Shown one piece after another: positions 40,319 through 64,000 of a stretch of DNA of 64,000 nucleotides. Position 1 is the stretch's first letter. Every line of letters starts with the position of its first letter. Position numbers and translations under genes: made by a program. The notes beneath the pieces are model-generated. The model had not been told where the DNA came from. It searched no databases and saw nothing but the letters and a program-made list of their open reading frames with translations. This DNA comes from an uncultured Alphaproteobacteria bacterium (GTDB taxonomy: Bacteria; Pseudomonadota; Alphaproteobacteria; Rhodobacterales; Rhodobacteraceae), in assembly GCA_963796445.1 (NCBI GenBank), contig CAWCLQ010000020.1, positions 55,455-119,454 on the forward strand. The letters are read 5' to 3'.

Positions 40319-41364
40319 ATGGGAGAATTTGCGCAAGAGTATAGGCGTGGTGCGGTCTCTGCGGGAGCAGTCGGCCGCATGTCAAACTTTGAATACTCAC
40401 TGTCTCTGACGGCTACGGACGATGATCGAGATGAGCAAGAACTGCGGCTTGACCACAGCAAGATCGAGTTTTCAGCGGCTGGGTGGCAACTAGGATTTGG
40501 GCAGGTGGCACGACGCTGTCGGCCATCCCGGCATACCTCTCTTATTCTCGGTATCAATGCCCACCCGCTACCTTCGCTCTATGGCGCGTTGGAGCATGAG
40601 AAGAAATCCCAGAACACTTGGTTGTCTTGGCTGGGGCCATGGCGCCTCGATACGTTTCTAGGCGATATGGGGGGCGCACGCGACGTCAACAATCCGCTTT
40701 TATTTGGCGCGCGGTTCGAAGCCTCCCCCACCGTGAACCTCAGTATCGGTTTGAACTTTACAGGCCAGTTCGGGGGCGAGGGGTATGAAAATGGATTTGG
40801 TGCATTTTGGGATATGCTGTTTGAAGTCAGCTATGACTTGCCCGAGGGTTTATGCCTATGCGATTTTACATAAAGGCCATCGCAGAGGACGAAGCGGGCA
40901 ACCTGCCCAGCAGCTGGATGTATATGGCGGGCGTCGCGTTTGATGGTGAAGTAGGTGTGTTGCCATTGCCTCTGGCAGCGGAGTTTGTTGAACCGGGTAT
41001 ATCTGGCTGTGTGGATTGTGCGTATAAAAACGGCGCATATCCTTCCTGCTATACCTACAGGGGGCGGACGCTGGAGGCCGCATTCGATACAGCCGGACAA
41101 GCGCTGCAAGTTCACGGGGCACTGCAACCGCGCGAGATGGAAGTTCTGTGCACCGGTCGTTTGTACGATGTAAACCGGACATCAGTCTCCGATCACAGTC
41201 TGTCGAGCGTGAATGTCGAAGGCGTGCTATTTGCTGTTACAGAAAATCACCAGGTAAGAGGCGCAGAGGTGCATTTGGGTTTGAACTGTCAAAGCTTTGA
41301 TCTGGATCGAGCCGGAATAGACGGCGGTTTGGAGCTTCACTTGAGGTTTAGTAGCCGGTTCTGA
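40319..41364 (+). pseudogene. Capsule-assembly Wzi-like outer-membrane protein remnant (frameshifted, N-terminus missing or degenerate)
   Basis: SLILGINAHPLPSL, GPWRLDTFLG, NPLLFGARFEASP in ORF 40319-40873. YPSCYTYRGRTLEAAFD and the terminal ...RF in ORF 40852-41364. Family call is by eye. Confidence 0.4.
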
Positions 41365-42712: not shown

Positions 42713-42919
42713 TTAAGCCAACGCGATGTTGGCAGCACTTTCGCGGCCATCACGGCCAGCTTCAATGTCAAAAGTGACTTTTTGATCGTCCGCAAGGCCG
42801 GTCAGGCCCGCACGCTCAACGGCAGAGATATGTACAAACACATCTTTGCTGCCGCCATCGGGCGCAATAAATCCAAAACCTTTAGTCGAGTTAAACCATT
42901 TGACGGTGCCAGTAGCCAT
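42713..42919 (-). CDS. cspA: Cold-shock protein, CspA family
   Basis: [34 protein letters not shown] with the RNP1/RNP2 motifs. 68 aa. Confidence 0.95.
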
Positions 42920-43316: not shown

Positions 43317-43565
43317 ATGTTGGAAAAGCTTAGCGTTTCAATTGATAAAGTTCGGATCCCTGCCAAACGCGCGCGGACGCTGGACGAAACGAAGCTTGAG
43401 CGTATTGCCGAAGATATGATTGAGACAGGCCAAAAAACGCCAATCCAGGTGCGGATTGATGGCGATGGCTACATTCTCATTGAGGGCCTGCACAGGCTTG
43501 AAGCTCTTCGAGCGCTTGGAGAGACGAATGTCGAAGCTTACATCGTCCAAGCACGCATGCACTAA
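43317..43565 (+). CDS. Stand-alone ParB/Srx N-terminal-domain protein (82 aa)
   Basis: KTPIQVRIDGDGYILIEGLHRLEALRALG matches the ParB N-terminal core. Confidence 0.65.
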   Translation: MLEKLSVSIDKVRIPAKRARTLDETKLERIAEDMIETGQKTPIQVRIDGDGYILIEGLHRLEALRALGETNVEAYIVQARMH

Positions 43566-43645: not shown

Positions 43646-43681
43646 AAAAAAAGGCACCGGTGCAAACATGCACCCGATGCC
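43646..43681 (-). terminator. Rho-independent terminator after small ORF copy 1
   Basis: On the minus strand: GGCATCGGGTGCA-TGTT-TGCACCGGTGCC followed by TTTTTTT. Confidence 0.7.
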
Positions 43682-43710
43682 TTCCGGTCTTGCGAGGTTT
43701 TGGTCGTGCT

Positions 43711-43812
43711 TTAGTGGTATCCGTTCACGCGTGTCTGGATAGAGTGGCACAGCGCGATGGATTTCACGACTTCTACACTGATTTTGCGGATTGTTTTGAT
43801 ACTATAAAGCAT
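43711..43812 (-). CDS. Conserved 33-aa ORF (copy 1), not in the ORF track
   Basis: MLYSIKTIRKISVEVVKSIALCHSIQTRVNGYH. AGGAGG lies 9 nt upstream of the ATG and a terminator lies downstream. The paralog is at 48896-48997. Confidence 0.55.
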   Translation of the reverse strand: MLYSIKTIRKISVEVVKSIALCHSIQTRVNGYH

Positions 43813-43973
43813 GTTTCTCATCCTCCTTATGCCAACGACACTACCCTGTGCTGCGCCGGCTGACTGTGAAGAAGGTTACACTCTTGAAACTTTTTTGAAA
43901 CTTTTCCGGACCTGTGAGCGATGTGCGCAAGCTCGGCTTCAATCCGCACTCATGGTGTGCGGTGACCGCATCT

Positions 43974-46820: not shown

Positions 46821-47280
46821 ATAGGTAAAGCAATTTTTTTGCGGTTATGCAGTCTGCAGGGGCCTGCGTTAATTGAAGCTATGCTTTTGGGGCGGAAGGT
46901 GTGACGGTAAAATTATCTCTATGCGGTTTTGTAGATGCAACACGATAGCAGGAAAAACAAGATCCAACGACGTTCTACGGCATTGGCACCACGAATGATA
47001 CGTCTGGAACATGTTGCGTTTGATGCTTCAAGCACAAACTCACGCCGCACCGTGTCCGCGTAAGAGCTGCTTTGTGCTGCCTATGGATGGTGCGATGATC
47101 ATGCTGGCCCTCGAAATAGTCGGCCAATATTTCTGGATGGCATGCGGAAATGGCACAGCACTGTGTTTGGTCCAGGACATCTGTCTAAGCGGACCCTTGC
47201 GACGAACGCTCCCGTGATAGCTGCGCAGGTGTTTCGGAAACGGGAAAACAGGAGCAGCGGTAAAAGGGGCAGGTCTTGCG

Positions 47281-47410
47281 TTATCGGGCATTTGCAGGGG
47301 GAGACGTCTTGAGCAGAGAAAAATAGACGTCAAAATATTAATATAAATCAATAAATTAGATGTAATTTTTAAGTAAATTATTCAACCAATAGTAGAAATT
47401 GGGTTCGTTT
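47281..47410. repeat. Conserved AT-rich tail of the duplicated module (copy 1)
   Basis: TTATCGGGC.TTTGC.GGGG...GTCTTGAG.AGAGAAAAATAGACGTCAAAA.ATTAAT...ATCAAT...TTATTCAACC...GAA.TTGGGTTCGTTT is shared with 52728-52851. Confidence 0.8.
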
Positions 47411-47984
47411 CGTGTTTTTGATATTTTCTCTTCAGAAATCCAGATCCGCAGCGCTTTTCTGCGGCGCGCGTCGGCCTCGCGACGGTATCGCGCAAGATGC
47501 TTCAACTTTGCGCGTCGTGCTGCAGGTCGGTTTGGAGCGGCTTTTTTCAATATCTTTAACGTTTCTATCATCTCCGGGTCCGTCTTGCGCGTCAGCAGAA
47601 AGTTGATCGTGTCGACATCATCGAGATCAAGTTCAGCCATCACCTCCACGAATTCTTGTACCGTGCCCTTTTTGCGCAGCGTTCTGACACTCTCCTCAAA
47701 AATATACTCCCGTTCGGCCTGCGCGGCACGGTGTAGACTGGCTTCCGCTTCAGCGAGAGCAAGAGCCGCCCGCGTTTGCGCGTCCGTTGCACTCGGGTCA
47801 GGCCGGCGTCTGCGTCCTCGACAATGATCCTGTAGAACCTCGTCACTTGCGTCCAGTCCGGCAGCCCGTTCAGGCCATGCGTGACAGCATTCTGCGCCGC
47901 CTTGGCCTTGCCCGCGGCCGATTTTGGCCCGGTGCTTTTTTGCGCGTTGGCCTTATTGGCGGCTGCCTGCTTCCTGGTGGTCAT
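47356..47984 (-). pseudogene. Frameshifted paralog of the 52860-53408 gene (ANKANAQKSTGP...HGL N-terminal motif family)
   Basis: N-terminus MTTRKQAAANKANAQKSTGPKSAAGKAKAAQNAVTHGL (ORF 47640-47984). C-terminus ...KHLARYRREADARRRKALRIW (ORF 47356-47649) aligns with the C-terminus of the intact copy. Confidence 0.55.
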
Positions 47985-48615
47985 GTTTCCTCAATCAGGA
48001 CGGCATCCTCGACAGGTTTTGCGGCGGCGGCTTTCAGACGATAATAGTCCTCACGGAGCTTGCGGCGCTTCGTCTCGAGGTCTGCAATCTTGCTTCATGG
48101 GAGGCCACCGGCGCTGCAACTGATGTATAGGCTTTGGCGACAAGCTCGTCGATGGAGATCCCTTGCGCGGTGAGTTCTGACAGGGCGTGTTGTTGTTTGG
48201 CCTCGTCTTCGCCGACAAGGTCGGCCCCCAATTGTTCGGCCTCACTGTTCTTTGTAAAAACATCGAACGTCCCGATTTTGCCATCGTGGAACGCGCCCTG
48301 AGAGAGCTGTCGTGTACCTGCGCGGATCAGCGCATCACGATAACGGCGGTGACCGAGGCTGTCGCACAGGATGTTGAAAAAATCCTCGGCGAGAACATGT
48401 TGCAGCGGAGTGGAAGGGGCGAGTTCCAAAAGGAGCGCCGCGTGCAGATCTTCCAGTTGCACGGGGTCTTCTCCCGGTAAAGGTTTACGTTTTGGTATCA
48501 GGTTTAAGAGCTCAGCGGCTCTTTGATTTTGAAGTGTCTTGACTGTTGTCCGGCATCTCTGTGTCCTTTTCTGCGGTGTGTGGCCCTCCCAAGCTTGATC
48601 TAGGATTAATACCAC
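47981..48615 (-). pseudogene. Paralog of the 53402-53983 gene with a 3'-proximal frameshift
   Basis: The ORF-track product ends aberrantly at 48034. An alternative frame reads IADLETKRRKLREDYYRLKAAAAKPVEDAVLIEET with its stop overlapping the next ATG (ATGA at 47981-47984). This matches the C-terminus of the intact copy. Confidence 0.45.
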
Positions 48616-48831: not shown

Positions 48832-48866
48832 AAAAAAGGCACCGGTGCAGTTCTGCACCCGATGCC
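48832..48866 (-). terminator. Rho-independent terminator after small ORF copy 2
   Basis: On the minus strand: GGCATCGGGTGCA-GAAC-TGCACCGGTGCC followed by TTTTTT. Confidence 0.7.
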
Positions 48867-48895
48867 TCTCGGTCTTGCGAGGTTTTGGTCGTGGT

Positions 48896-48997
48896 TTAGT
48901 GGTACCCGTTCACGCGTGTCTGGATGGAGTGGCACAGCGCGATGGATTTCACGATTTCAACACTGATTTTGCGGATTGTTTTGATACCTGACAGCAT
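48896..48997 (-). CDS. Conserved 33-aa ORF (copy 2), not in the ORF track
   Basis: MLSGIKTIRKISVEIVKSIALCHSIQTRVNGYH. AGGAGG Shine-Dalgarno. Seven nt differences from copy 1, of which four are synonymous. Confidence 0.55.
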   Translation of the reverse strand: MLSGIKTIRKISVEIVKSIALCHSIQTRVNGYH

Positions 48998-49306
48998 GTC
49001 TCACGTCCTCCTTGTACGCGTCACACTAGCAGGGGCGGTGCGGCCTGACTGTGAAGAAGGTTACATTGCTGTAATTTTTGTGGGGGTTTGCAGTCCGACG
49101 TTGTCGCATTGGGCAGCAGGCCTTGTGTCAACGCACATGCCACTGCACTGCACGACGTCGTCCGGCCCTTCTGAGGTGTTCATACCGACAACGGACCACG
49201 CGGCGCGTTCGTCGGGTTCTCAAGCTGAATGGGATCGGCATTCTTGCCCGACCTATTTGCAGAAAGCGCTCGTGCGCCGAAAATCTAAATGATTGTGGTT
49301 TTCCAG

Positions 49307-50279: not shown

Positions 50280-50693
50280 GAGAATCCTTAGAATTTTGAA
50301 AGTAATCGGGTAGATCACTTGTCCGAACGTTCGAGATGTCGCGTTTATTGTCAACGCAAATGCGGCCCCATTTAGACGTGAGGGGATAAAAAATGTTGTA
50401 AACCTGGTCGCTACCTTCTCGGTTCTAAAAGGCTGTTGTCGCGTTTGACGCTTGGAGGCTCACCGCCCATCATTGTGTTACATGCACGTAAAGGCGTGTG
50501 CGTGGGTTCAGAATGTTGCTGAAAATCCCCCCTGGTCATGGTCACTCGGAAGCTTGAGCAGGAGACGTCTTGCATTAACGGAAACAGATCGGGTTCCGTC
50601 TCGCACCCAAAATTTGGCTCTGCCCTCTGCAGGCTTGCGGAGGCTTTGGATCGAGCGCATGCTGCAGGTATCCTCAAAAATGGAGACGCGGGA

Positions 50694-51463
50694 ATGTCAC
50701 AATATGATCTGGATGGCCGTGTTGTCTTCGTCACCGGTGGTGCAACAGGTATCGGCAAGGCAACGGCGCAAGAGTGCGCTGCAAACGGCGCGCGCGTTGT
50801 CATATCCGAAAACCGCATGTCCCGGCTTGAACCGTCGCTGAAGAAATCTCCGCGCGTGGTGGCACAGTTCGAGCGGTCCAGTGCGATGTCACGCGCTCCG
50901 AGGACATCGCGCGGGCCGTGGCTTTTACGGTCGAGGCATTCGGGCGGCTCGACGGGGCCTTCAACTCTGCGGGCATCGCGCAAAACCTATCCGACCCGTC
51001 GAGCGCCTTAACTGAAGAGGAATGGGACAGCGTGATTGCCATCAATTTAAAGGGTGTGTGGCTGTCAATGAAGCACCAGATTGCCCAGATGCTTGAGCAG
51101 GGCGACGGAGGTTCTATCGTGAATGCGTCTTCCGTCGCAGGATTGGTTGGCACACGTGTTGGGCTGGCCTATTCTGCGAGCAAGCATGGCGTGACCGGCC
51201 TGACCAAGTCAGCCGCCCTGGAACAGGCCCAGACCGGCATTCGGGTCAACGCCGTTTGCCCGGGGTGGGTGGAGACGCCAATGACTAAACCGATCACAGA
51301 TGCCAACCCGGACTTTCTGCAGTTGTTGATCTCTCGCCACCCGATTGGGCGCGTTGGCCAAGCGCCCGAAATTAGTGGGCTTGTGGCGTGGTTGTTGTCG
51401 GATGCATCGAGCTTCATGACGGGCACGGCGATACCTATGGATGGCGGGCTGACCGCCCAGTAG
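50694..51463 (+). pseudogene. Short-chain dehydrogenase/reductase (SDR) with a frameshift near 50830
   Basis: VVFVTGGATGIGKA (frame 1). TVAEEISARGGTVRAVQCDVTRSEDI...NASSVAG...YSASKHGVTGLTK (frame 2). The shift is consistent with one missing base at CTTGAA/ACC. Confidence 0.7.
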
Positions 51464-51604: not shown

Positions 51605-51707
51605 CGTTACCTCTATCGATCCATCTGCTCCTCACGGCTCAGTGTCCCGATCTAGCACTGACATAGCCGACCTGCCGCATTCCGTGGGCAGCAAAAGGAG
51701 AACTACG
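51605..51707 (+). promoter_or_regulatory. Conserved cspA 5' leader (copy 2)
   Basis: Aligns with the reverse complement of 42920-43026. Confidence 0.55.
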
Positions 51708-51914
51708 ATGGCCAATGGCACCGTAAAATGGTTTAATTCTACAAAAGGTTTTGGATTTATCGCCCCTGAAGGCGGCAGCAAAGATGTGTTTGTGCACATC
51801 TCGGCAGTTGAGCGCGCTGGCTTGACCGGCTTGAACGACGACCAGAAAGTTACTTTTGATATCGAGTCCGGCTGCGATGGTCGCGAGAGCGCAGCCAATC
51901 TGGCCCTGGCTTAA
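51708..51914 (+). CDS. cspA: Cold-shock protein, CspA family (second copy)
   Basis: [40 protein letters not shown] Shine-Dalgarno. The ORF-track start at 51642 is rejected. Confidence 0.95.
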
Positions 51915-52225: not shown

Positions 52226-52614
52226 ATGAAAAACTCTGATCGAGATCGTTTTGACGGACGTCTCAAAAACGCGTCTGACGCCAAACAGAACCGGCTTGAA
52301 CGCTTCAAAGCAGCAGCCGGTAGACCCGGAGAGACTGGCAAAGCGCACCAGACGAGATGAAGAAAACGCCGCCCGAAAAGCAGAGCGACAGGCGAAGGCG
52401 GCAAAGCTGCTCCAGCAAAAAGAAGACCTCGAACAGCAGAAATTTCAGGATGCCAAGCGCGCAGAAGAGCAAGCCGCGTTGCGCGCAGCAGAGCTTGACG
52501 CGGAAGCGGCGGTGACTGCCGATCAAAGCGATGGCGCAGACGACCGCGCGTGAAGCGGAGCGCAAGGCGGAACGAGACCGACGCTATGCTGCTAGACAAA
52601 ATCGCAAGCGCTGA
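52226..52614 (+). pseudogene. Small Lys/Glu/Ala-rich protein (DUF6481-like by eye) broken by two frameshifts
   Basis: MKNSDRDRFDGRLKNASDAKQNRLERFKAAA, then PERLAKRTRRDEENAARKAERQAKAAKL, then EAERKAERDRRYAARQNRKR, in three successive frames. Confidence 0.35.
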
Positions 52615-52727
52615 TTGGGCCAAAAAACGCCGCTCACAGACAATCAGAGTGCGCTGAAACACGGGCTCTATACGGCCGAGGCGAAGACGGTGATGCCATG
52701 ATCTGGGGTGCGGGGTCCGGGGAAGCG

Positions 52728-52851
52728 TTATCGGGCCTTTGCTGGGGGATCGTCTTGAGAAGAGAAAAATAGACGTCAAAACATTAATTAAAATCAATGG
52801 TATAGGTCTTTTTAGGTCATTTATTCAACCTGAAATAGAATTTGGGTTCGT
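52728..52851. repeat. Conserved AT-rich tail of the duplicated module (copy 2)
   Basis: Aligns with 47281-47410. Confidence 0.8.
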
Positions 52852-52859
52852 TTTATTTT

Positions 52860-53408
52860 TTATGTTTCGGTCCATGTCTTCAGTGCTTTCCGGCGGCGTG
52901 CTTCAGCTTCTCGTCTATAACGGGTGATCCGTTTCAGGGATTTGATATCTGCACCGCGGCTTGCGGTGGGGCCGGGTCCGTACAGCTCAAGCGGTTCTTG
53001 TGCCTGCGGATTCCCGGACTGTGCCAACTGAGCCTCGAGCGCGGCGGAACCGCTCAAACCGGCATCTTCGCTGCCAGAATACCGGGCATGTCTGTGGCGC
53101 ACCGTTCTATCTGTCATCTGTTTTAGATGCGTCTGTTCTGCACGGGCAGCCCGGGTGCGGCGCGCTTCCGTTTCGGCGAGGCGAAATGCGGCCAAATGCT
53201 TCGGATCGGCCGAAAACAGATCAGGCACTGCCTTAGCGTCATCAAGAATGATCCTGTACCAGTAGATCATCGCATCTTGGTCCGGGGGCATATTGAGCCC
53301 GTGCTGTGTTGCATTGCGCGATGAGCGGGCTTTACCTTGTCTGGTCCTGGGACCGGTACTCTTTTGCGCATTGGCCTTGTTTGCACGTTTTTGGCGGTCT
53401 GTTACCAT
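52860..53408 (-). CDS. Hypothetical protein with N-terminal ANKANAQKSTGP-x10-NA-x-HGL motif (intact copy)
   Basis: 182 aa. MVTDRQKRANKANAQKSTGPRTRQGKARSSRNATQHGL. C-terminal RYRREAEARRRKAL. The start overlaps the upstream stop (ATGGTAA). Confidence 0.6.
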   Translation of the reverse strand: MVTDRQKRANKANAQKSTGPRTRQGKARSSRNATQHGLNMPPDQDAMIYWYRIILDDAKAVPDLFSADPKHLAAFRLAETEARRTRAARAEQTHLKQMTDRTVRHRHARYSGSEDAGLSGSAALEAQLAQSGNPQAQEPLELYGPGPTASRGADIKSLKRITRYRREAEARRRKALKTWTET

Positions 53409-53983
53409 GTGTCTTGCTCAAGCTCCAATATGTTACCAATTGTTTTTGCAGCCTCCGCTTTTACTCTCTCTAAATCGTCGCGCAAGCGCCGCCGTCGAGG
53501 CTCTGCCTCCGCAATCTGACGGTCGAAATATTCCAACTGTAGGACAATTGCGCAGTACGCCCGAGCTTGCAGATCCTGATCCTTGATCCCCATCGTTGCG
53601 AGCTTTTCCTGTGCCGGAACGTGACGCTCCGGGTCGCTATGAAAAAGGTCGTCGGCAAACTTCAGGGCTTCGTGGTTGTTTCCGAGTACATCCTCGAGTC
53701 CCACCTCTGCCATGTAAAAAGCGTCGGCGGCCTGTCTTTTCATTCCATCCGCGATCAGGCTGGCGCGCATAGTTTTCATGCGCCTGGTTTCCCACTCCAG
53801 TTGTATGATGTTCTCCACCAAACTGCGTTGATAGGGGCCGCCTTGTCCCAAATCTGCAAGTGTTTCTTCCTGCAAGCTTTTGAACAGCGCCTCGTCTTCA
53901 CCAAGCCAGAATTGCATCTCGTGAAACGTATCCAGCAGATCCGGGCCAACTAAAATTTCTTGTGTTTTTGTTGAGTCTGTCAT
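53402..53983 (-). CDS. Hypothetical helical protein, first gene of the duplicated module (intact copy)
   Basis: 193 aa. Its paralog at 47981-48615 is of the same length. Coiled-coil-like C-terminus. Confidence 0.6.
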   Translation of the reverse strand: MTDSTKTQEILVGPDLLDTFHEMQFWLGEDEALFKSLQEETLADLGQGGPYQRSLVENIIQLEWETRRMKTMRASLIADGMKRQAADAFYMAEVGLEDVLGNNHEALKFADDLFHSDPERHVPAQEKLATMGIKDQDLQARAYCAIVLQLEYFDRQIAEAEPRRRRLRDDLERVKAEAAKTIGNILELEQDTW

Positions 53984-54669: not shown

Positions 54670-57600
54670 ATGAACAGCGCTGCACCCATACGACGGTCGA
54701 ACATTCTGGATCGATGTATTTCCATCGATCTGGAGGTTGACCCCGATAAGGCAAGGATTTTCGCATTTGCCGCCGTTGGCCGCGATGTCGACAAAGGTGC
54801 CCTCGTCGCCAGAGGAAATGTTGGCGCGATGTTTCCCCAATTGGACGCCTACAGCCGGAGTTTCGATCACGTCATCGGGCACAATATTCTGCGCCACGAC
54901 TTGCCGCACCTCGCCGCCGCCTCATCGACGTTTGCACGACTGGCAGAGGCCCCGATTGACACTCTGTGGCTCAACCCGCTGGCGTTTCCGCGCAACCCTT
55001 ATCATCACCTCGTCAAGCACTACCAGGACGGCCGGCTGCAAACCGGTCACGTCAATGATCCCGAATTTGACGCGCGACTGGTGTTCGACGTTCTGCAGAA
55101 CCAGATTAGCGCGTTCCAGGAGCTCAATGCGGCGTCGCCGGATGCTCTGACCGCCTATCACTTCCTGTGCTGCCGGTCGCCCCGTAGCGACGGGTTCGAC
55201 AAGCTTTTTGCAGAGATCCGGAACGCGGAAAAACCAGACCGGGGCGCGGCAGAGAGAGCGATCCGCCGACTAATCGGATCGGAAGCATGCTCCGAGATGC
55301 TCGACCAAACGCTCAACGACCTGAATGATACCGCGCTTTCCTGGCCCATGGCCTATGCGTTGTCGTGGATTTCGGTGGCGGGGGGTGACTCTGGTGATGC
55401 CACCTTGGGTCCGAGCGCAGTTCCGCGACGCATCGCGCATTGTAAAAACCCTCAGGGACTCCAATTGCGGGAACCCGGGCTGTGAATACTGCAGCAAACA
55501 CAACGACCCGAAGGTGGCGTTGGAAAAGTGGTTCGGATTTGAAGATTTCCGGCCCGAACCGATCGACGAATTCGGGCGACCGCTTCAAGAGCGGATCGTC
55601 GAAAGTGCCATGCGCGGGGACAGCCTCTTGGGCATTCTGCCCACCGGCACCGGCAAGTCTATCTGCTACCAAATTCCGGCTCTCTCGCGCTTTGACAAGA
55701 CCGGTGCGCTGACGGTCGTCATATCGCCGCTCGTTGCCCTGATGGCGGACCAGGTGCAGGGGCTGGCGCGCGCAGGCATCTCATCAGCCGTCACGATCAA
55801 TGGCATGCTGTCCCTGCCCGAGCGACAGGATGCTCTGGACAAGGTGCGCATGGGCGATGCGGCCATCCTGCTGATTTCGCCGGAGCAGTTGCGGAGCACC
55901 TCGGTGCGGTCTGTTCTGGCGCAGCGCGACATAGGACTTTGGGTGCTGGACGAGGCCCACTGTGTCTCCAAGTGGGGGCACGATTTCCGCCCCGACTATC
56001 GATACGTCGGCCGCTTCATCAAGGAACGCTCGGGCGAGGAGGTCGCCCCGGTCCTCTGCCTGACAGCTACGGCCAAGCCCGAAGTCGTTCAGGATATCCG
56101 AGGGCATTTTCACGAGCGTCTGGGCCTCGAGCTCATTCTGCTCGACGGCGGTGCATCCCGGTCCAATTTGAGCTTCGAGGTGCTGCCCACCCAGCGCTCT
56201 ACCAAAATGGCCGATATCCTTGACCGTCTGGAGGAGCATTTGCCGACCACAGGGGCCTCCGGCGCAATCGTCTACTGTGCAACCAAACGGTCGACGGAGC
56301 GTGTGGCAGAATTTCTAAAGCAGCAGGGAATGTCGGCTGACTACTATCATGCCGGACGCACCCCCGACGAAAAGCGTGACATCCAGGAGGCCTTCCGCTC
56401 CGGTCATCTGCGTGTCATCGCTGCAACCAACGCCTTCGGCATGGGGATCGACAAACCCGACATCCGCCTCGTCGTCCACGGCGATGTGCCGGGGTCGCTG
56501 GAAAACTACTTGCAGGAAGCGGGCAGGGCGGGGCGCGATCGCAACCCTGCGCATTGCGCTCTTCTCTACAACACAGAGGACGTGGACAAGCAATTTGACT
56601 TGAGCGCGCGCTCGCGTCTGGCCCGCCACGAGATTGTCGCGATCCTGAAGGCCGTTCGCCGGCTCGACAGCAGGATGCGCAAGGACGGCGAGGTCGTCGC
56701 CACGTCGGGCGAAATTGTGAAAGAGGAACTGGATCGCGAGTTCCAGCGCGACAGCACGACCGACGACACCCGGGTTAAAACGGCCGTTGCCTGGCTCGAA
56801 GAGGCGAAGCTCCTCAGGCGCGAGGAGAACCGGGTGCAGGTCTTCCCGGCGTCACTGTCTGGTGCGCGATCTCGAGCAGGCCAAAGCATTCTCGACAAGG
56901 CCGACATCACGCAAGCGCGCCGGACAGCAGCTCTTGAGTATCGTTCGCCACATCATCAACGCGCCTGCCGAAGAGGGGATCTCGACCGATGTCCTGGCGG
57001 GGGCCAGCGGCCTCTCGGCGGCGGCGCTGCGCAAGGCGCTGACCGATCTCGAAGCGCTCGGGATCGCCAATGACGACACGAACATCACGATCTTCGTCCA
57101 TGTCGGCGTGGAGAAGGCGTCGCGAGCGCGGATTGACAAAGCGTCGAGACTGGAAGCCGACCTCATCGCCAGATTGCGGGAAGACGCGCCAGACGCCGAC
57201 AGCGGCGAGCCGATGCCGCTTAATCTGGCCGCGACCTGCCAGATGCTGCGGGAAGCGGGGCATGCATCCGTTCGACCGGATATCGTCGAAGGCTTGCTCC
57301 GCGGCATGGCGCAAGACGGCCGGGACATGGAGGGCGGACGCGGAAATCTGCATGTCCGAAAAGTCGCGCGCGGCAGCTTGCTGGTGCGCCTGCAACGCTC
57401 CTGGCCGGTCGTTGACAAGACGGCAGTGCTCCGACGTGATGGCGCGGGGAGGCTTCTGTCGCACTTGGTAGGTGCGATCCCGGAAGGGGTGAGGGGCAAG
57501 GATATCCAGGTCGAAACAACGCTGGGCGGGCTGCTCGGCGTCGATCACCGGCGATGCAATGCTGCGCGCGGCAGTCCACGACCCCAACAAATTGATGGAC

Positions 57601-59496
57601 CGCGCGCTGCTGTGGCTGCACGAACAGCAGGTCGTGACACTGGGCAAGGGACTGTCGGTGTTTCGTCCCGCGATCACTTTGCGCCTTGCCCCCAAGGGAG
57701 GCTCGTTCACGCTTCAGCATTTCGCCCCGCTCGAAGAGCACTACACCGAGCAGACGATCCAGACCCATGTGATGGCGGCCTATGCCGAGAAGGGGCTCGA
57801 CAGCATCGACGAGGCCGAGCGACTGGCGGAGGACTATTTCGTGCTGGAGCGGGACGCCTTCATGCGCCGCTGGATTCCCGGCCGCGGCACCGAGTTTCGC
57901 CGGCAGGCAACGGGTAAAGCCTGGCGCCGCATCGTGGATGCGCTCGGCAACAAGACACAGGAGCAGATCGTGCGCGACGACCGCGAGCAGACCAATGTGC
58001 TCGTGCTGGCCGGGCCCGGCTCCGGCAAGACCCGCGTGCTGGTGCACCGCATCGCCTATCTCGTGCGGATCCGGCGCGAAGACCCGCGCGGCATTCTGGT
58101 GCTGGCCTACAACCGCCACGCCGCCGCCGAGATCCGCGAGCGACTGCGACGTCTGATCGGCGAGGAGCGCGCGTTCGTCACCGTCTCGACAATCCATGCC
58201 CTCGCCATGCGTCTGGTCGGGGCCAGCTTTGCAGGGACTGATGTGGCAGAGAAGCCGGATTTCGACACGCTCCTGATGGATGCGGTGCGGCTTCTGCGCG
58301 GCGACGGTCTGGACAAGCCCGAGGCTGAAGGCGTTGCGCGAAGACGCTGATTCAGGGCTACCGCTGGATGCTGGTCGACGAATATCAGGACGTGGGCCCG
58401 GAGGAATATGCTCTGATCTCGGCGGTTGCAGGCCGCAGCCTCGATGATCCGGATCTGCGCATCAGCCTCTTCGCGGTCGGAGACGACGACCAGAACATCT
58501 ATGCCTTTGCCGGCGCCTCGATCCGCCACATCCGTCAGTTCGAGGAGGACTATTCCGCCAAACCAGTCTTTCTGACCGAAAACTACCGCTCCACGGGCAA
58601 CATCATTTCCGCGGCGAATGCCGTGATCGAACACGCCGCAGACCGGATGAAAACCGGGCACGACATCACCGTCAACAAGGCGCGGCGCAACGCGCCCCCG
58701 GGGGCGAGATGAAAGCCTCGATCCGGTGGTACAGGGCCGCGTGCAAATCCTTGCCTGCCCCGCGGGCAACGATGCCCAGGCCATGGCTGCGATCGACGAG
58801 CTGGTGCGACTGTCACAGCTGATCCCGGGGTGGACGTGGTCCGCTGCCGTGATCTCGCGCGACTGGCGGCGCCTCGCCCCGGTACGCGATTTTGCCGAGG
58901 CCTCGGGATACCGGTCGATGGTGCGAGCGACCGGCTGCCGGGGCTGTGGCGGATGCGCGAGATGCAAGCCTTCATCGTGCTGCGACCGGGCCAAACCCGC
59001 ATGGTGTCCGTGGCGGACCTGACGGATGTGCTGAACACAATCCCAAGTCCCGCTGGACCGACCGGATCGGCGAAGGACTGGGCCTGCTCGCCCGCGAGAT
59101 TAACGAACGTCGCTCCCCGCGACCGACATCATCGAATGGTTTGCCGAATGGGCTCGCGACTCCTGGGGCGAACAGCGCGGTTTAAAGCTCTTGACCGCCC
59201 ACCGCGCCAAGGGGCTCGAGTTCGACGACGTGGTCATCCTCGACGGCGGCTGGGAACGCCCCTCGCGAGAAGAGGACCAGGATGCGCCCAGACGGCTGTT
59301 CTACGTCGCCATGACCCGCGCGCGCCGCAGTCTCGCCGTGATGTCGAACGACAATCACGAGTATTTGCCAACAAAATCCCCTGCGATCGTCAGCCGGACT
59401 GTCGTGCCTAATCTTCGTCCTTCCCGGGCCCCAGACGCTATTTCCAGTCTGCGGAGGCCCGTCTGGTGGATGTTGTCCTTCGGCGGCCGGCAATAA
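54670..59496 (+). pseudogene. Giant DEDD-type exonuclease - RecQ helicase - UvrD/PcrA-like helicase fusion gene, broken by at least seven frameshifts
   Basis: Exonuclease: ISIDLEVD, GHNILRHDLPHL, HVNDPEFDA. RecQ: LPTGTGKSICYQIPAL, LDEAHCVSKWGHDFRPDY, VIAATNAFGMGIDKPDIRLVVH, QEAGRAGRD. UvrD: VLAGPGSGKTRVLVHRIAYL, MLVDEYQDV, AVGDDDQNIYAFAGA, TENYRS, LTAHRAKGLEFDDVVIL, LFYVAMTRAR. The successive ORFs occupy frames 1,2,3,1,3,1,3,1. Confidence 0.8.
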
Positions 59497-59535: not shown

Positions 59536-61100
59536 TTATTCTGGGGTCCAGTTCCAGGGCATGAGTTCGTCGAGGCGGGTCATTTTGTGGTCTGCGACGC
59601 GGGCGAGGACCCAAGTCAGCCACGCTTCGGGATCGACCTTGTTCATGCGACAGGTTTCAATAAGGGTGTAGGCAATGGCCGCAGTATCGCCGCCGCCCTT
59701 TGATCCCATGAACAGATAATTTTTCCGCCCCAAAGTCACCGGTCTGATTGATCGCTCGCAGATATTGTTGTCCAACTCAAGCGTACCGTTTTCGAGATAT
59801 GCCCGCGCCTTGGGCATGCGGCCGAGGGCGTATCGGATGGCCGCAGCCAGCGCTGATTTACCCGATATCTTGGGGAGTTGCAGCGCGAGCCAGGCCTCTA
59901 GGTCGTCAAAGATCGGCTTTGCCTTTGCCAGCCGCAGGGCCACGCGGTCTTCAGCGGGCTTGTAGCGCGCCTCTTTTTCCACAGCATACAGAGCGGCGAT
60001 GCGCTTGATGGCTTCTTCGGCGATGGAGGAGCCTTCGCTTTCGTAAACATCAACGAACTTTCGACGCACATGCACCATGCAGGCCTGCTCGCTGGCGCGA
60101 TCTGCCCCAAACAAACCGTTGAAGCCGGTGAATCCATCAGCATGGATCACGCCCTTATATCCCTTGAGGTGGGATGAGGGGTGCTCACCTTTACGGTCCA
60201 CGCTGAACTGATACCACGCACAAGACGGGGCTTGTCCGCACCATGGCCGCTCATCTCGAACGTAGCTCCACAACCGGGCGGTTTGCGCCTTGGCTTTGGC
60301 CTGCATCTTGACGGGTGTGTCATCCGCGAACAGCGCAGGCCCGGCGCGCACCAGTTTGCCGATGTGGGCGGCTAAAGGTTCCAACAGGGCCGTGGAACGG
60401 CCTACCCAATCGGTCAGCGTGGAGCGATGCAGGTTGACCTTTTCGCGGGCGTAGATCTCGGACTGGCGATATAATGGCAGGTGATCGCAATACTTCCCGA
60501 CCAGAACATGCGCCAGCAAACCTGGCCCCGGGCGTCCGCGGGTGATCGGGCGTGACGGCAGTTCGGCCTGAACAAAGGCCTCGCAACAGGTGCAGGTCAT
60601 GCGGGGCCGCACGATGCGCTTTACGACAAAATGACCGGGGACGTATTCCAACTCTTGCGTCACATCCTCGCCGAGTTGCTTGAGCGCGCCGCCACACTCA
60701 AAGCAGGCATCACCGGGCGACAGGATCTCTTCTTGTCGCTCAAGGTGGTCAGGTAGCGGTGCGCGATTGTGGGTGCGCTTGGCGTGGGTGGTCTCATCCG
60801 CGTCGTCATTGGATGCCGTCATTTTGGGTGGCGGCTTCAATCTCAATGTCTTCCTGCAGATCGAAACGCCAGCTGATCCATGGCCTCGGATTTGGCTCCA
60901 AAACGCGCCTTGCGATGTCCCGCCAATTCCTTCTTCAGCTTCTCGATCTGATAGGCTTGCGACTTCACCTCAGCGGCCAAAAGCTCGCTGACCGCCCGCA
61001 GTTCGGCGGGGTCTTCAGGCAGGGATTTGAAGGTCTCGCGCATGGGTAATTTATATCCGCTCGGCCCCTCAAACGGAACGGAAAAAGTGCAAAACCCCAT
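59536..61100 (-). pseudogene. tnpC: IS66 transposase TnpC, interrupted by about two frameshifts near 60.81-60.87 kb
   Basis: The N-terminal leucine-zipper part (ORF 60843-61100: ...[22 protein letters not shown]) is separated from the catalytic body (59536-60846: CFECGG...DDTPV...LWSYV...HADGFTGF...). Confidence 0.8.
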
Positions 61101-61887: not shown

Positions 61888-62002
61888 TATCGATAGTGGA
61901 CACTATCACCCACTCCATCGCGCAGGCAGGGCAGTCACACCGGACGGATACACTTGTACCCGAGGCCTCCAATGATCCATCCCAACATGCCTTTCTATGT
62001 CA

Positions 62003-62874
62003 GCGTAATTGCCGATGCGCCAAGTTTATGGCAGGCCAATTCGCCGTCTCTGTCTCGATCAAACTTCCTATCCAGTTGTTCTTCCGCTTCCGCACAACGG
62101 TTGTCAAAGGTTAGGAGCATTTCATCTGAAAATGGCTCCATCCGAGCGCGCTCGGCGTGCTCGTTCATTTAGTTGGTGAGCCGCTCGACGTGCAGAAAAA
62201 TGGAAGCTCATCATATAGTTAAGCGCGGGTTCTTTGCCCTCTTTTAAAATATCCCTAGCGGATACTGTAAGTTCGTGTAAGGACCGCCATCTTGCCAAGG
62301 CGCCATCAGGATAACCACCCTTCAAAAGACAAATGATTTCCTGAGCCACGATAAGCGCCTTCGGGAATATTTGGGAAATCGCACCCATAACGATGTGTGT
62401 GTCTTGTGGGCTCTCTAAATCGAAATCTATTGAATGTGCTTCACCCAACTCCTGGGCGATTTGCCACATCATTTCAAGATGATCGAAAGCTGGCTTCCAG
62501 CGTTTGAAGGTACGATTTTCAAACCCCTTGGTCTCAATTCGAATTTTATGCAGCGTTTTTGCAGCAGTCGTGCGGTAGCTTCGTAAGCTGCTAGTCACGC
62601 AATCATCAATTGTTTCTTGTATTAGCTTTGGCAAACCCTCTTCTAAGAAGTCGTTCGCAATCTTGAGGATTTCCTCGCCATCTTGATCTGTCAATTCGAT
62701 GACTATCTCTTCCTCTGCGCCGTCATCCCATTCGTACTCGCCATCTTCTTCAGAAAGAATGTGTTCCACGATCGCGCCAATCGTTTTCTTGTCCTCAATT
62801 CCTTTTTCTGCGAGCTTATTTGTTAATGCGGAACGTAAGAAGTTGCGCGGAGATTTTCTCAATCTCCGTCTCAA
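62003..62874 (-). pseudogene. DUF5677-like protein with a frameshift near 62165 (family call by eye)
   Basis: ORF 62122-62874 contains ...AQEIICLLKGGYPDGALARWRSLHELTV.... After ~62165 another frame continues NEHAERARMEPFSDEMLLTFDNRCAEAEEQLDRKF... to a stop at 62003. Low GC. Confidence 0.4.
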
Positions 62875-63357
62875 GTACTCTCATCATCTTGTCCATTGAG
62901 TGGTTCCTAAGTACCTGACCAGCGACTTCTTTATAGCGACCTTTGCAATGGTGTAGCAGAGGTCACTTGGTGCAAGCCAACGTATTCTGAAAGCTTCGCT
63001 TTCTGCGCCTTGGAGACCTTCGTGCTGGCTGCAGCAGACGACAGCTTTGGGCCGTGAGCTGATTCACCTGTATTTGTGCTGCCCTAACATGATGCTGCGA
63101 AGCGGAGCAACCAGCTACGTCGGAGCCCTCTTTACCAATTTTCTGCACCGCAACGAACGTCCGTTAGGCTTTGGGGAGTTACCGACGTGCGGCGGAATGA
63201 GGCCCTAGACACGCCTACCTTTAGCTATGCTGCCCACGGATTGGCGGGACTGGACATTGAGCACCGCGAAGCCGATCTTAGGAATGTAACCGGACCTACC
63301 AACCGAGAATTAGTGGCCCTTTCAGCTTGGCTCAGTAGTTAATCGCAGGAACCTACA

Positions 63358-64000
63358 TTGCTTACAGACATTTTCGCATTTCGATATGCAAACAGTAAAA
63401 TTTGGGACGCATATAGCGCCAAAGAAAGTCGCCTATTGGTTCAGGCATTTTCTGTGGTGAAGGACATGAACCCTTATTAGACTCCAAGGGTAGTGAAAAC
63501 TCAGTTGGGAAGGCATTTTGGAAGAGCTTACACGATAGAATAGCGGTTGAGCTTGGACTTCAAAAACTCTCACAAACGGCATTTAGTTATCAAACGATGT
63601 ATCAGGGGAAGCAATCAAGCTTCACCCATTCGCATACTTGGCTGGCTGTCTGCGAAAACTGGTTGATACAAAGCCCGACTGGAAACGACGATATTGACGC
63701 ATTTATCAAAGAACGACTTAGTCTGATTGAGGTGGCACTGCGCGATAAAGAGTTAGCCGTATCGAAGGCGAATGCTGAGTTGCCCCAGAAGATTTTGGAT
63801 GCAAAATTGAATGCCAAGAGGCGTCCACCCAGCGGAGTTATTAGGATTCCGGGTGACCCGGAAATAGGTCTCCGGGCTTGGAACAAGAAACTAAATGAGG
63901 CCTTTCAGGTTCGCGTCGATGAGTTGAATACTCGGTTTCGCCAAGCCGGTTGCAAACTGCATTATCACAATGGGTTTATTCAAGTTTCAGAAGACGCATT
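63358..64000 (+). pseudogene. Partial orphan gene running off the window, with a frameshift near 63475; not in the ORF track
   Basis: Frame 1 (63358-63480) reads LTDIFAFRYANSKIWDAYSAKESRLLVQAFSVVKDMNPY-stop. An open frame from 63417 to the window end reads ...LLDSKGSENSVGKAFWKSLHDRIAVELGL...DELNTRFRQAGCKLHYHNGFIQVSEDA. Low GC. Confidence 0.35.

Follow-up and report, generated by a model that had tools for sequence, protein, structure and literature searches.

Two diverged gene pairs with conserved AT-rich tails in a rhodobacterial polysaccharide island: candidate parts of a site-specific recombination module

The window analysed here, a stretch of 64,000 nucleotides from an uncultured alphaproteobacterium of the Rhodobacteraceae, carries two copies of a gene pair, A and B, each followed by an AT-rich tail. 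On balance, we consider it probable that each of them represents the integrase-distal portion of a small module for site-specific recombination that occurs in marine Rhodobacterales and some Hyphomicrobiales; such a module residing in polysaccharide islands is the likeliest reading of the data. The window holds two diverged modules that would have been acquired separately and are now without a cognate integrase in this stretch. The initial annotation had suggested, among other readings, a recombination-prone mobile-element remnant with a cis-acting tail, and this part of its interpretation is supported by the co-occurrence of the genes in other genomes, the recombinase that is often adjacent, the tandem arrangement of the units and the breaks in synteny at one of the two tail motifs. 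The association gives an uncharacterised protein family of very large size a concrete setting: a tyrosine recombinase, a defined pair of DNA motifs and, in marine Rhodobacterales, a swapping of modules on plasmids and in polysaccharide islands.

An intact and a decayed copy

The genes of the two copies are as follows.

53402-53983 (-): gene A of copy 1, intact open reading frame of 193 aa
52860-53408 (-): gene B of copy 1, intact open reading frame of 182 aa
about 47981-48556 (-): gene A of copy 2 (A'), pseudogene, from three-frame translation, tblastn and HMM
47356-47984 (-): gene B of copy 2 (B'), pseudogene with one frameshift near 47805

The intact pair had been described correctly from the outset: the stop codon of A overlaps the start codon of B (ATGGTAA), as read directly in the sequence. 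The HMM of the A family matches positions 1-191 of the copy 1 protein (E 1.8e-80), and copy 1 may still be capable of expression. Copy 2 (47356-48556, minus strand) has the gene order of copy 1 and, as also noted at the outset, both of its genes are frameshifted; it is dead. Reading A' requires two frameshifts, one N-terminal and one C-terminal; its match is split in tblastn, and its HMM match is spread over two frames. The HMM match of B' breaks at model positions 69 and 61, and the start of B' overlaps the stop codon of A' (ATGA).

The label "duplicated" given to the module is misleading. The A protein of copy 1 is only 29% identical to A', and the B protein only 41% identical to B', and with values this low the copies are no recent duplication; the two have diverged as much as copies from different genera. 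Apart from the tails, self-BLAST found a single nucleotide match between the copies, 35 bp at 83% identity, in the segment coding for the N-terminal motif of B. A' shares 47-57% identity with the A protein from a locus in another genome (L004; L numbers designate the loci outside the window), and copy 2 is nearer to L004 than to copy 1. A simple local segmental duplication, one copy of which then decayed without any mobile or recombinational meaning, would fit the like order and orientation of copies lying 5.4 kb apart. We regard this explanation as practically untenable. It is refuted by the divergence figures, since the proteins have drifted so far apart while the tails are 80% identical, and the closeness of copy 2 to L004 and the recurrence of the module across genera also argue against it.

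The tails and their two motifs

The tails and the motifs within them map as follows.

52725-52867 (-): tail 1, from self-BLAST
52844-52853 (-): M1 core of tail 1, AAACGAACCC, 7 nt past the B stop codon
52725-52742 (-): M2 of tail 1, GCAAAGGCCCGATAACGC, at the outer edge, weight-matrix score 26.8
47278-47426 (-): tail 2, from self-BLAST
47401-47410 (-): M1 core of tail 2, within the open frame, where it is read as NEPN
47278-47295 (-): M2 of tail 2, GCAAATGCCCGATAACGC, weight-matrix score 28.9

In self-BLAST the two tails are 79.9% identical over 149 bp, and the early observation that they are better conserved than the genes was borne out by the comparison with the proteins (about 80% versus 29% and 41%). 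Their GC content is 0.30 and 0.35, against 0.55 for the window. Each tail carries two nucleotide motifs, M1 at the 3' end of B and M2 (CAAAtgCCCGATAACGC) at the outer edge, with an AT-rich spacer between them in both. We propose that the tails have been retained or homogenised in the window because they would be the cis-acting part of the module. Similarity over whole tails inside one genome is seen in the window and is not seen on L001, a point against the module reading.

M1 lies inside the B open reading frame in nine cases, three of them in frame 0, five in frame 1 and one in frame 2, and 6-184 nt past the B stop codon in eleven others. A distant relative of B that is a single chain is likewise followed by M1, and two to three copies of the motif are present on L009 and L013. 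Judged from this pattern, M1 is a nucleotide-level element whose reading frame is not fixed. The AT-rich tail of the initial annotation is real and the cis-acting role ascribed to it is supported, with the amendment that its M1 part (ACGAACCCAA) codes in other members of the family. When searched for in metagenomes, M1 gave 54 matches, most of them with neither M2 nor a B gene; most are probably chance, and the matches to an M1 17-mer in viral contigs resemble chance as well.

M2, defined as a weight-matrix score of at least 13, follows B at a distance of at most 400 nt in both window copies and in 13 of 21 outside pairs, for a chance expectation of about 0.006 matches per site as estimated from the background rate. 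In two more outside pairs it lies at 2.7-3 kb, behind cargo genes. Conservation is confined to the left part of the motif (CAAAnnCCCGATAACG), and the 25 nt on its right have nothing in common among 15 sites; M2 bounds the unit on the outside. Tails with both motifs also occur without A-B: after RelE cassettes (L038, L058, L061), after a Doc cassette (L029) and after a 615-aa gene.

Two structural candidates were considered for the tail and rejected. Some stems of a hairpin after M1 seemed to covary among 18 sequences, but of 500 shuffles 93 attained the covariation score and 167 the percentage paired. An attC-like fold, computed as DNA for both strands of both tails, gave z-scores of -1.64, -0.93, +0.58 and +0.61, no better than shuffles. 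Rfam 15 produced no gathering-score matches within the window and none in the tails or in a repeat designated R2; at E values up to 1, between 42 and 55 kb of the window, cspA leaders were the sole matches.

Module order, polysaccharide context and exchange at M2

In every one of the 21 independent pairs outside the window A immediately precedes B; these pairs come from 20 independent loci or plasmids (B alone is visible on the truncated contig L059). B has 49 homologues; a word-based homology search for A returned almost only A, and A homologues were taken from the loci instead. The hosts are Rhodobacterales and some Hyphomicrobiales, and the cultured carriers include Marivita geojedonensis and Sulfitobacter sp. 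OXR-159. The three findings that the initial annotation had named as refuting it did not arise: the genes co-occur elsewhere, the tail motifs are present at other copies, and no housekeeping family could be assigned.

Upstream of A-B, nine of the 21 outside pairs (L001/L002, L005, L007, L012, L014, L018, L082 twice, and L083) have a divergent XerC/D-like integrase gene and an Xre-type HTH gene. The full order of the module is an integrase gene divergent from the Xre-HTH gene, an optional VanZ-like gene, A, B, M1, the AT-rich spacer and M2. A-B is always the integrase-proximal unit, and integrase fragments adjoin intact copies on L001, L014 and L082. There are two head-to-tail units on L082 and two in the window, and three co-oriented M2 sites on L001. 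Such units collect head to tail, either within gene clusters for surface polysaccharides and toxin-antitoxin cassettes or next to them. In the window, neither the integrase of the module family nor the Xre-type HTH gene was found, and no remnants of integrase, HTH or VanZ genes were detected upstream of either copy (all E above 0.1), which counts against the module reading; repeat R2 and the region upstream of A in copy 1 had no similarity to any of the loci compared.

A comparison of the Sulfitobacter plasmids L082, L087 and L088 places the break in their synteny inside M2. L082 and L087 share 93.5% homology over 5.9 kb, and this homology begins inside M2 (L082 position 8693). On the inner side of the motif, L082 carries HTH-VanZ-A-B, L088 carries an inverted pair made of an HGGxSTG gene and a 166-aa gene, and L087 has neither. 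M2 is a breakpoint where alternative modules swap between otherwise collinear plasmids. On L082, 55 nt separate the end of module I from a truncated fcl gene, which is not a clean site-to-site junction. Five of seven loci show no second M2-like site beyond the integrase, so that the direct repeats of a classical attL/attR pair are not established; L001 and L014 have an inverted one. No conserved motif was found past the integrase stop codon. An inverted pair of M2 sites flanks a module on L001 and another on L087.

Polysaccharide genes lie near the module in the window and at most loci, a raw count taken with no formal background. One could envision, by analogy with the functionally similar UpxY/UpxZ pairs of Bacteroides, that A-B would be a locus-specific regulator of acquired surface-polysaccharide operons, with the tail acting as promoter or leader of the operon downstream. 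Tail 2 is located 458 bp upstream of co-oriented GT2-gmd-fcl genes, an M2-like site lies ahead of GT2-gmd-fcl-manC on L088, a co-oriented Wzz gene comes after the tail on L009, as does, recognised by eye, a Ugd-like N-terminus on L021, and the two diverged paralogous pairs of the window are both inside its polysaccharide island. Yet many loci have convergent or unrelated genes past the tail (OsmC, RuvB, transposase, CcdAB, a Ca-binding repeat protein), and polysaccharide genes occur on either side of the module. Furthermore, neither NusG/KOW nor HTH domains are present in A and B, and the tails contain no promoter or terminator consensus. A regulatory role of this kind is, in our estimation, unlikely.

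The recombination module that we prefer has points in common with several known systems. It may parallel integrons, which include sedentary chromosomal ones rich in toxin-antitoxin cassettes, in the tyrosine recombinase gene that diverges from a candidate co-oriented series of units. It also resembles them in the site closing each unit, whose ends are conserved around a centre that varies in length (about 45-150 bp), in a cargo of toxin-antitoxin, transporter and polysaccharide genes, and in the existence of integrase-less arrays. However, the L005 integrase scores only 20.8 bits on the integron-integrase model TIGR02249 (cut-off 265 bits), its best matches being XerD and XerC at 61-67 bits, far under their cut-offs. 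No hairpin emerges on folding the module tail (z-scores -1.6 to +0.6), the repeats formed by M1 and M2 are direct and not inverted, A-B invariably comes first among the units, and the arrays are short (2-3 units). To our knowledge, classical integrons have not been reported in Alphaproteobacteria. It is conceivable, though the odds are well against it, that the int-HTH-A-B-M1/M2 unit serves these bacteria as an integron-like cassette platform, in which a XerC/D-type recombinase, directed by an A-B heterodimer bound to M1, would swap modules at non-hairpin M2 sites, the exchanged cargo being toxin-antitoxin, transporter and surface-polysaccharide modules. Such a platform, if it existed, would drive cell-surface variation in marine roseobacters and would provide the first function for a superfamily of at least 30,000 clusters.

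The Xer-dependent dif (pdif) modules of Acinetobacter plasmids are likewise small gene modules, often toxin-antitoxin, which are shuffled between related plasmids and bounded by short recombinase sites; the recombinase of our module is XerC/D-like, and the inverted site pairs around a module on L001 and L087 have their counterpart there. In contrast to pdif sites (two 11-bp arms in inverted orientation around a 6-bp spacer, about 28 bp in all), M2 is a conserved half-site lacking a conserved second arm and spacer, the absent arm being the sole basis of the comparison between M2 and dif. The sites of the module are also mostly co-oriented, and a dedicated integrase is encoded alongside. Tandem integrase-bearing islets and integrative mobilisable elements share with the module a core of integrase and Xre-type regulator, tandem units, integrase fragments beside intact copies, and residence in variable islands and plasmids. 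They differ from it in that the module has no flanking direct repeats or tRNA target and no excisionase, replication or mobilisation genes, and in that its accessory genes A and B are conserved and uncharacterised.

The A and B proteins and their relatives

In copy 1, A is acidic (pI 4.7, net charge -15) and B is basic (pI 10.6, net charge +15). This complementarity recurs, with A/B net charges of -10/+10, -7/+8, -14/+12 and -19/+16 in addition to -15/+15. The AlphaFold2 model of A consists of helices only (pLDDT 78) and that of B is all-helical (pLDDT 74); a fold search of both models against the PDB returned generic coiled coils throughout, with best E values of 0.3-0.4. Pfam, NCBIfam, PADLOC and PHROGs contain no match for A or B. 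PADLOC-DB gave none for the window proteins and one weak match (E 0.007) for an A homologue, and we found no literature mention of the motif strings HGGxSTG, STGPRT or NALKHG.

B starts with the motif ANKANAQKSTGPRTxxGKxxSxxNAxxHGL and ends with RYRREAEARRRKAL. Its N-terminal STGP...NAxKHGL motif is present in about 30,000 clusters at 50% identity. Residues 23-78 of the A profile align to residues 42-97 of the relative P0034 (hhalign probability 93%, E 3.3e-7), in a part of P0034 that comes directly after its own B-type motif. A and B are split halves of a protein that is widespread as a single chain. We suppose that the two would join in a heterocomplex, with the basic B binding nucleic acid, most likely M1 beside its own gene, under the control of the acidic A; the complex might aid a recombinase, its own or that of the host, at the tail. 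Alternatively, it might serve in regulation or maintenance of the module. If A-B were a site-recognition or control factor, this would explain the reshuffling of surface-polysaccharide loci and toxin-antitoxin cassettes in a group not known to have integrons.

Some of these properties are also those expected of an addiction pair, in which acidic A would neutralise basic B and thereby stabilise the island or plasmid segment around the pair, the tail being no more than the cassette end. As in type II toxin-antitoxin systems, the two genes overlap and are translationally coupled, they specify partners of matched opposite charge with the acidic one first, and they reside on mobile DNA. True RelE and Doc cassettes are likewise followed by a tail with M1 and M2, the module directly adjoins CcdAB and PIN-type toxin-antitoxin pairs, and a decayed copy beside an intact one is common for such pairs. 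On the other hand, A and B resemble no toxin-antitoxin or defence family, and at about 190 aa both are unusually large, with predicted all-helical structures devoid of a recognisable toxin fold. Relatives carry both parts fused in a single chain, A-B is always integrase-proximal and not a randomly placed cassette, and M1 is linked to B-family genes even among distant relatives. We see an addiction pair as possible but doubtful. The addiction-type or defence-type function entertained in the initial annotation drew no support from the profile databases listed above; only the charges and the gene overlap resemble toxin-antitoxin systems. Were A-B nonetheless an addiction pair, it would represent a new toxin-antitoxin family, and the split-versus-fused relation of A and B offers a handle for biochemistry under either reading.

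One further feature abuts the outer side of M2 in tail 1.

52642-52701 (+): HGGxSTG-type gene remnant (NQSALKHGLYTAEAKTVMP, then stop)

This fragment had been listed as a third one with the N-terminal signature of B, but it is no third copy of B and belongs to a different protein family. BLAST of the remnant against B of copy 1 gave no match; it corresponds instead to the NQNALKHGNYT motif of L001_88, with 10 of 13 residues in common (E 2e-6, against two sequences), and it sits past the stop codon of a frameshifted DUF6481-like open reading frame. L001_88 is an HGG_STG protein of family NF041373 (46 bits; domain cut-off 29 bits).

A weak match of the NAxKHG motif of the HGGxSTG protein to a phage small-terminase model (E 4.8e-5) raises the question of transfer or packaging. 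On this view the unit would serve transfer or packaging: B would recognise M1, or the tail as a whole, as its oriT-like or pac-like site, and the adjacent DNA would be carried by conjugative plasmids, phages or gene transfer agents. Pac sites lie in or beside the gene of their binding protein, and the candidate cis site here is likewise in or beside the gene of its presumed binding protein. Moreover, a true terS gene abuts the integrase on a Sulfitobacter plasmid, and M1 is repeated two to three times on L009 and L013. We hold such a module to be quite improbable: relatives of B are absent from 2.9 million viral contigs, there is no PHROG match, A and B do not match TerS, B does not match HGG_STG, and the module is linked to neither relaxase nor capsid genes.

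B, and also its N-terminal 47 residues alone, failed to match NF041373 at E values up to 1; hhalign of B with the HGGxSTG protein gave a probability of 2.7%, and the Cys/His-rich N-terminus of these proteins is absent from B. A was considered as a homologue of the 204-aa HGGxSTG partner and rejected, the similarity not being significant. Like B, however, the HGGxSTG-domain proteins carry an STGP...NAxKHG(L/Y) motif, and their genes, again like B, follow one for a helical protein of about 170-200 aa, beside M2 and the same integrase (L001, L088).

Two diverged copies in the window

The initial annotation described an intact gene pair, a frameshifted second pair and conserved AT-rich tails, and this description is correct save for two amendments.

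Features of the two copies
53402-53983, minus strand: gene A, copy 1, intact, 193 aa
52860-53408, minus strand: gene B, copy 1, intact, 182 aa
About 47981-48556, minus strand: gene A', copy 2, broken, one frameshift needed near each end
47356-47984, minus strand: gene B', copy 2, broken, a single frameshift needed near 47805

In copy 1 the start of B overlaps the stop codon of A within the shared string ATGGTAA; copy 2 lies 5.4 kb away in identical order and orientation. When the window is compared with itself, the tails (47278-47426 and 52725-52867; GC content 0.30 and 0.35; window 0.55) are 79.9% identical over 149 bp, and the only nucleotide match between the genes is 35 bp in the region coding for the N-terminal motif of B. 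The proteins are just 29% (A) and 41% (B) identical, and copy 2 has more in common with a copy from another genome (L004, 47-62%) than with copy 1. The two copies are diverged members of one family rather than a recent duplication, and this divergence rules out plain local duplication. The second amendment concerns a plus-strand "third fragment" (52642-52701) that had been described as sharing the N-terminal signature of B. It does not match B; 10 of 13 residues correspond to the NQNALKHGNYT motif of an HGGxSTG-domain protein (NCBIfam NF041373), and it lies beyond the stop of a DUF6481-like ORF that is itself frameshifted. That ORF (52226-52614, plus) is rich in Lys, Glu and Ala, and its N-terminus weakly resembles DUF6481 (E 1.6e-4, under the Pfam cut-off).

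Proteins and tail motifs of the module

Neither A nor B matched a family in Pfam, NCBIfam, PHROG or PADLOC, and their AlphaFold2 models, all-helical with pLDDT of 78 (A) and 74 (B), had no relative in the PDB. A word-based search returned 49 homologues of B, all unnamed and mostly 180-214 aa long. With E up to 1e-3 the B profile hit 30,411 cluster representatives, and with E up to 1e-30 just 147; the full-length family is small and the N-terminal motif very widespread. Invariant residues of B are N10, N13, A14, S17, G19, P20, G25, N32, A33, H36 and G37. In three single-chain relatives (P0034, P0045 and P0049) the segment directly after the motif can be aligned with residues 23-78 of the A profile (hhalign probability 93%, E 3.3e-7). 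A and B thus correspond to a split, reordered form of one protein, which argues that they form a complex and act jointly. The acidic A and the basic B have net charges that are opposite and nearly equal in five of six pairs.

Ten loci with B were fetched from representative genomes, namely Primorskyibacter, Sulfitobacter, Marivita, Maritimibacter (two), Marinosulfonomonas, a Paracoccaceae MAG and the Hyphomicrobiales Roseitalea and Anderseniella; plasmids of Sulfitobacter and Gemmobacter carry B as well. Our own HMMs place A immediately 5' of B in every one of the 21 independent outside pairs, which come from 20 independent loci or plasmids; one further, incomplete contig has B alone visible. 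Nine modules carry, ahead of A-B, an Xre-type HTH gene and, transcribed divergently, a tyrosine recombinase (about 300 aa) with SAM-like and catalytic domains, whose top matches, XerD and XerC at 61-67 bits, are far under the equivalog cut-offs. A small VanZ-like membrane protein is encoded between HTH and A at three loci (L001, L014, L082). Beside the window copies there is no trace of integrase, HTH or VanZ-like gene.

Two conserved nucleotide motifs emerged when the sequences 3' of B were aligned. M1, (A)ATCCCGAAACGAAsCCAAwt, sits at the 3' end of B. Its core falls within the B ORF in nine cases, in all three frames (peptides PETNPN, FPKxSQ or NEPN), and 6-184 nt 3' of the stop codon in eleven; its conservation is that of DNA, not peptide. 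Two or three M1 repeats occur at two loci (L009 and L013), and a distant single-chain relative of B has a 17-nt M1 match 250 nt downstream. A GGTGGCC-type tandem repeat (L085, 6892-7160) separates this distant relative, P0041, from an M1-like site (CGCGAAACGAACCCATTTG). M2, CAAAyn(C)CCGATAACGy, lies 20-370 bp beyond M1, or 2.7-3 kb out with cargo genes in between (L012, L082a). A weight matrix places it downstream of B on the same strand in most loci (chance matches estimated from the background rate at about 0.006 per 400-nt site), and the 25 nt flanking it on the outer side have nothing in common between sites. M1 resembles M2 in direct orientation (AAATCCCGA-AACG and AAATGCCCGATAACG). As single-stranded DNA the tail folds no better than shuffled sequence, and covariation gives no support to a small hairpin 3' of M1. 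Neither an Rfam family nor a promoter or terminator consensus was found in the tails.

M2 as a joint between modules

Three related Sulfitobacter plasmids differ on the inner side of M2. NZ_CP139709.1 carries two complete units, arranged head to tail. One comprises integrase, HTH, A and B, then an MFS transporter and M2, with fcl and manC fragments after it; the next opens with a decayed integrase and continues with HTH, VanZ, A, B, M1 and M2, followed by CcdAB. NZ_CP116424.1 is 93.5% identical to it over 5.9 kb beginning within M2 (position 8693 of L082, part of NZ_CP139709.1), and its inner side has just a degenerate M2-like site, without integrase or A-B. At the equivalent place NZ_CP139727.1 has an integrase and then an inverted pair, a 166-aa gene and an HGGxSTG gene. 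By this comparison M2 is a joint between a common backbone and alternative modules. Other observations fit. At L001 three co-oriented M2 sites bound A-B, a 615-aa repeat-protein gene with its own full M1+M2 tail, and a CcdA/HGGxSTG block. The M1 18-mer had 54 matches in a metagenome scan, with M2 downstream in eight, after A-B (three), a RelE gene (four) or a Doc gene (one). NZ_CP139727.1 also has an M2-like site ahead of GT2-gmd-fcl-manC, the gene triad that follows window tail 2.

Of the possible readings, the evidence best supports a recombinase-associated module with M2 as its outer end, of which the window holds two integrase-less relics, one decayed. Such units pile up in tandem within polysaccharide islands and plasmids. 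A-B may bind the tail and assist or control recombination, as M1 is invariably beside B-family genes, B is strongly basic, and A is related to the segment after the B-type motif in fused relatives. A tail common to RelE and Doc cassettes, together with the charge pattern of A and B, would also suit an addiction pair, and a further rival makes the tail a transfer or packaging site. The recombinase-associated module is similar in organisation to integrons and Acinetobacter dif modules, but its integrase is not IntI-type and its site is neither a hairpin nor two-armed and dif-like. We therefore place it among site-specific recombination modules as a variant of its own, whose accessory proteins are uncharacterised. 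Integrons are not known to occur in Alphaproteobacteria. The papers searched contain no mention of the motif.

NZ_CP116424.1 (S. faviae; L087 5188-5205, minus) has a perfect M2 (score 28.4) in opposite orientation, flanked by genes for an EPS-associated MarR and a nucleotidyltransferase, in a polysaccharide locus that also encodes a NusG-family antiterminator. Inverted M2-like sites adjoining integrase fragments on the integrase side of two modules (L001 1089-1106, minus; L014 about 4461) may be left over from older insertions or from inversion. On NZ_CP139709.1 (L084 2564-3148, minus) a lone gene with the annotation terminase small subunit, no homologue of B, adjoins the 3' end of the module integrase.

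Polysaccharide islands

The window modules sit amid capsule and polysaccharide genes (Wzi fragments, fcl, gmd, GT2 and UXS, the last identified by eye from translation), among many split genes and close to an IS66 transposase; the 40-58 kb stretch looks like a decaying island. Recurrent at outside loci are Wzz/GNVR, Poly_export, YjbH, GDP-mannose dehydratase, GtrA, Bac_transf/PglD/DegT, NeuB, family 4 glycosyltransferases and rfbABCD, along with toxin-antitoxin pairs and transposases. One could envision A-B as a regulator of the adjoining polysaccharide operon. Since these genes occur on both sides of the module and in both orientations, we read the link, seen in raw counts, as shared location in variable islands, not operon regulation.

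Genes apparently split by frameshifts include those for Wzi, a short-chain dehydrogenase and an N-terminally extended RecQ-like helicase (40319-41364, 50538-51463, 54670-57917). The IS66-family transposase lies at 59536-60846 (minus), and after it comes a low-GC block (62000-64000; 0.47-0.49) that holds a DUF5677 protein gene (62122-62874). A small ORF at 43317-43565 (plus, 82 aa) weakly matches the ParB N-terminal domain. A 251-bp direct repeat, R2 (43647-43897 and 48832-49082, 84% identity), without match in Rfam or any fetched locus, has one copy 3' of fcl and the other between UXS and the decayed A gene. Two cspA-like genes with leaders (42713-42919, minus; 51642-51914, plus) form a 316-bp inverted repeat of 80% identity, and both score below threshold against the Rfam cspA thermoregulator (37 and 32 bits; gathering score 78).
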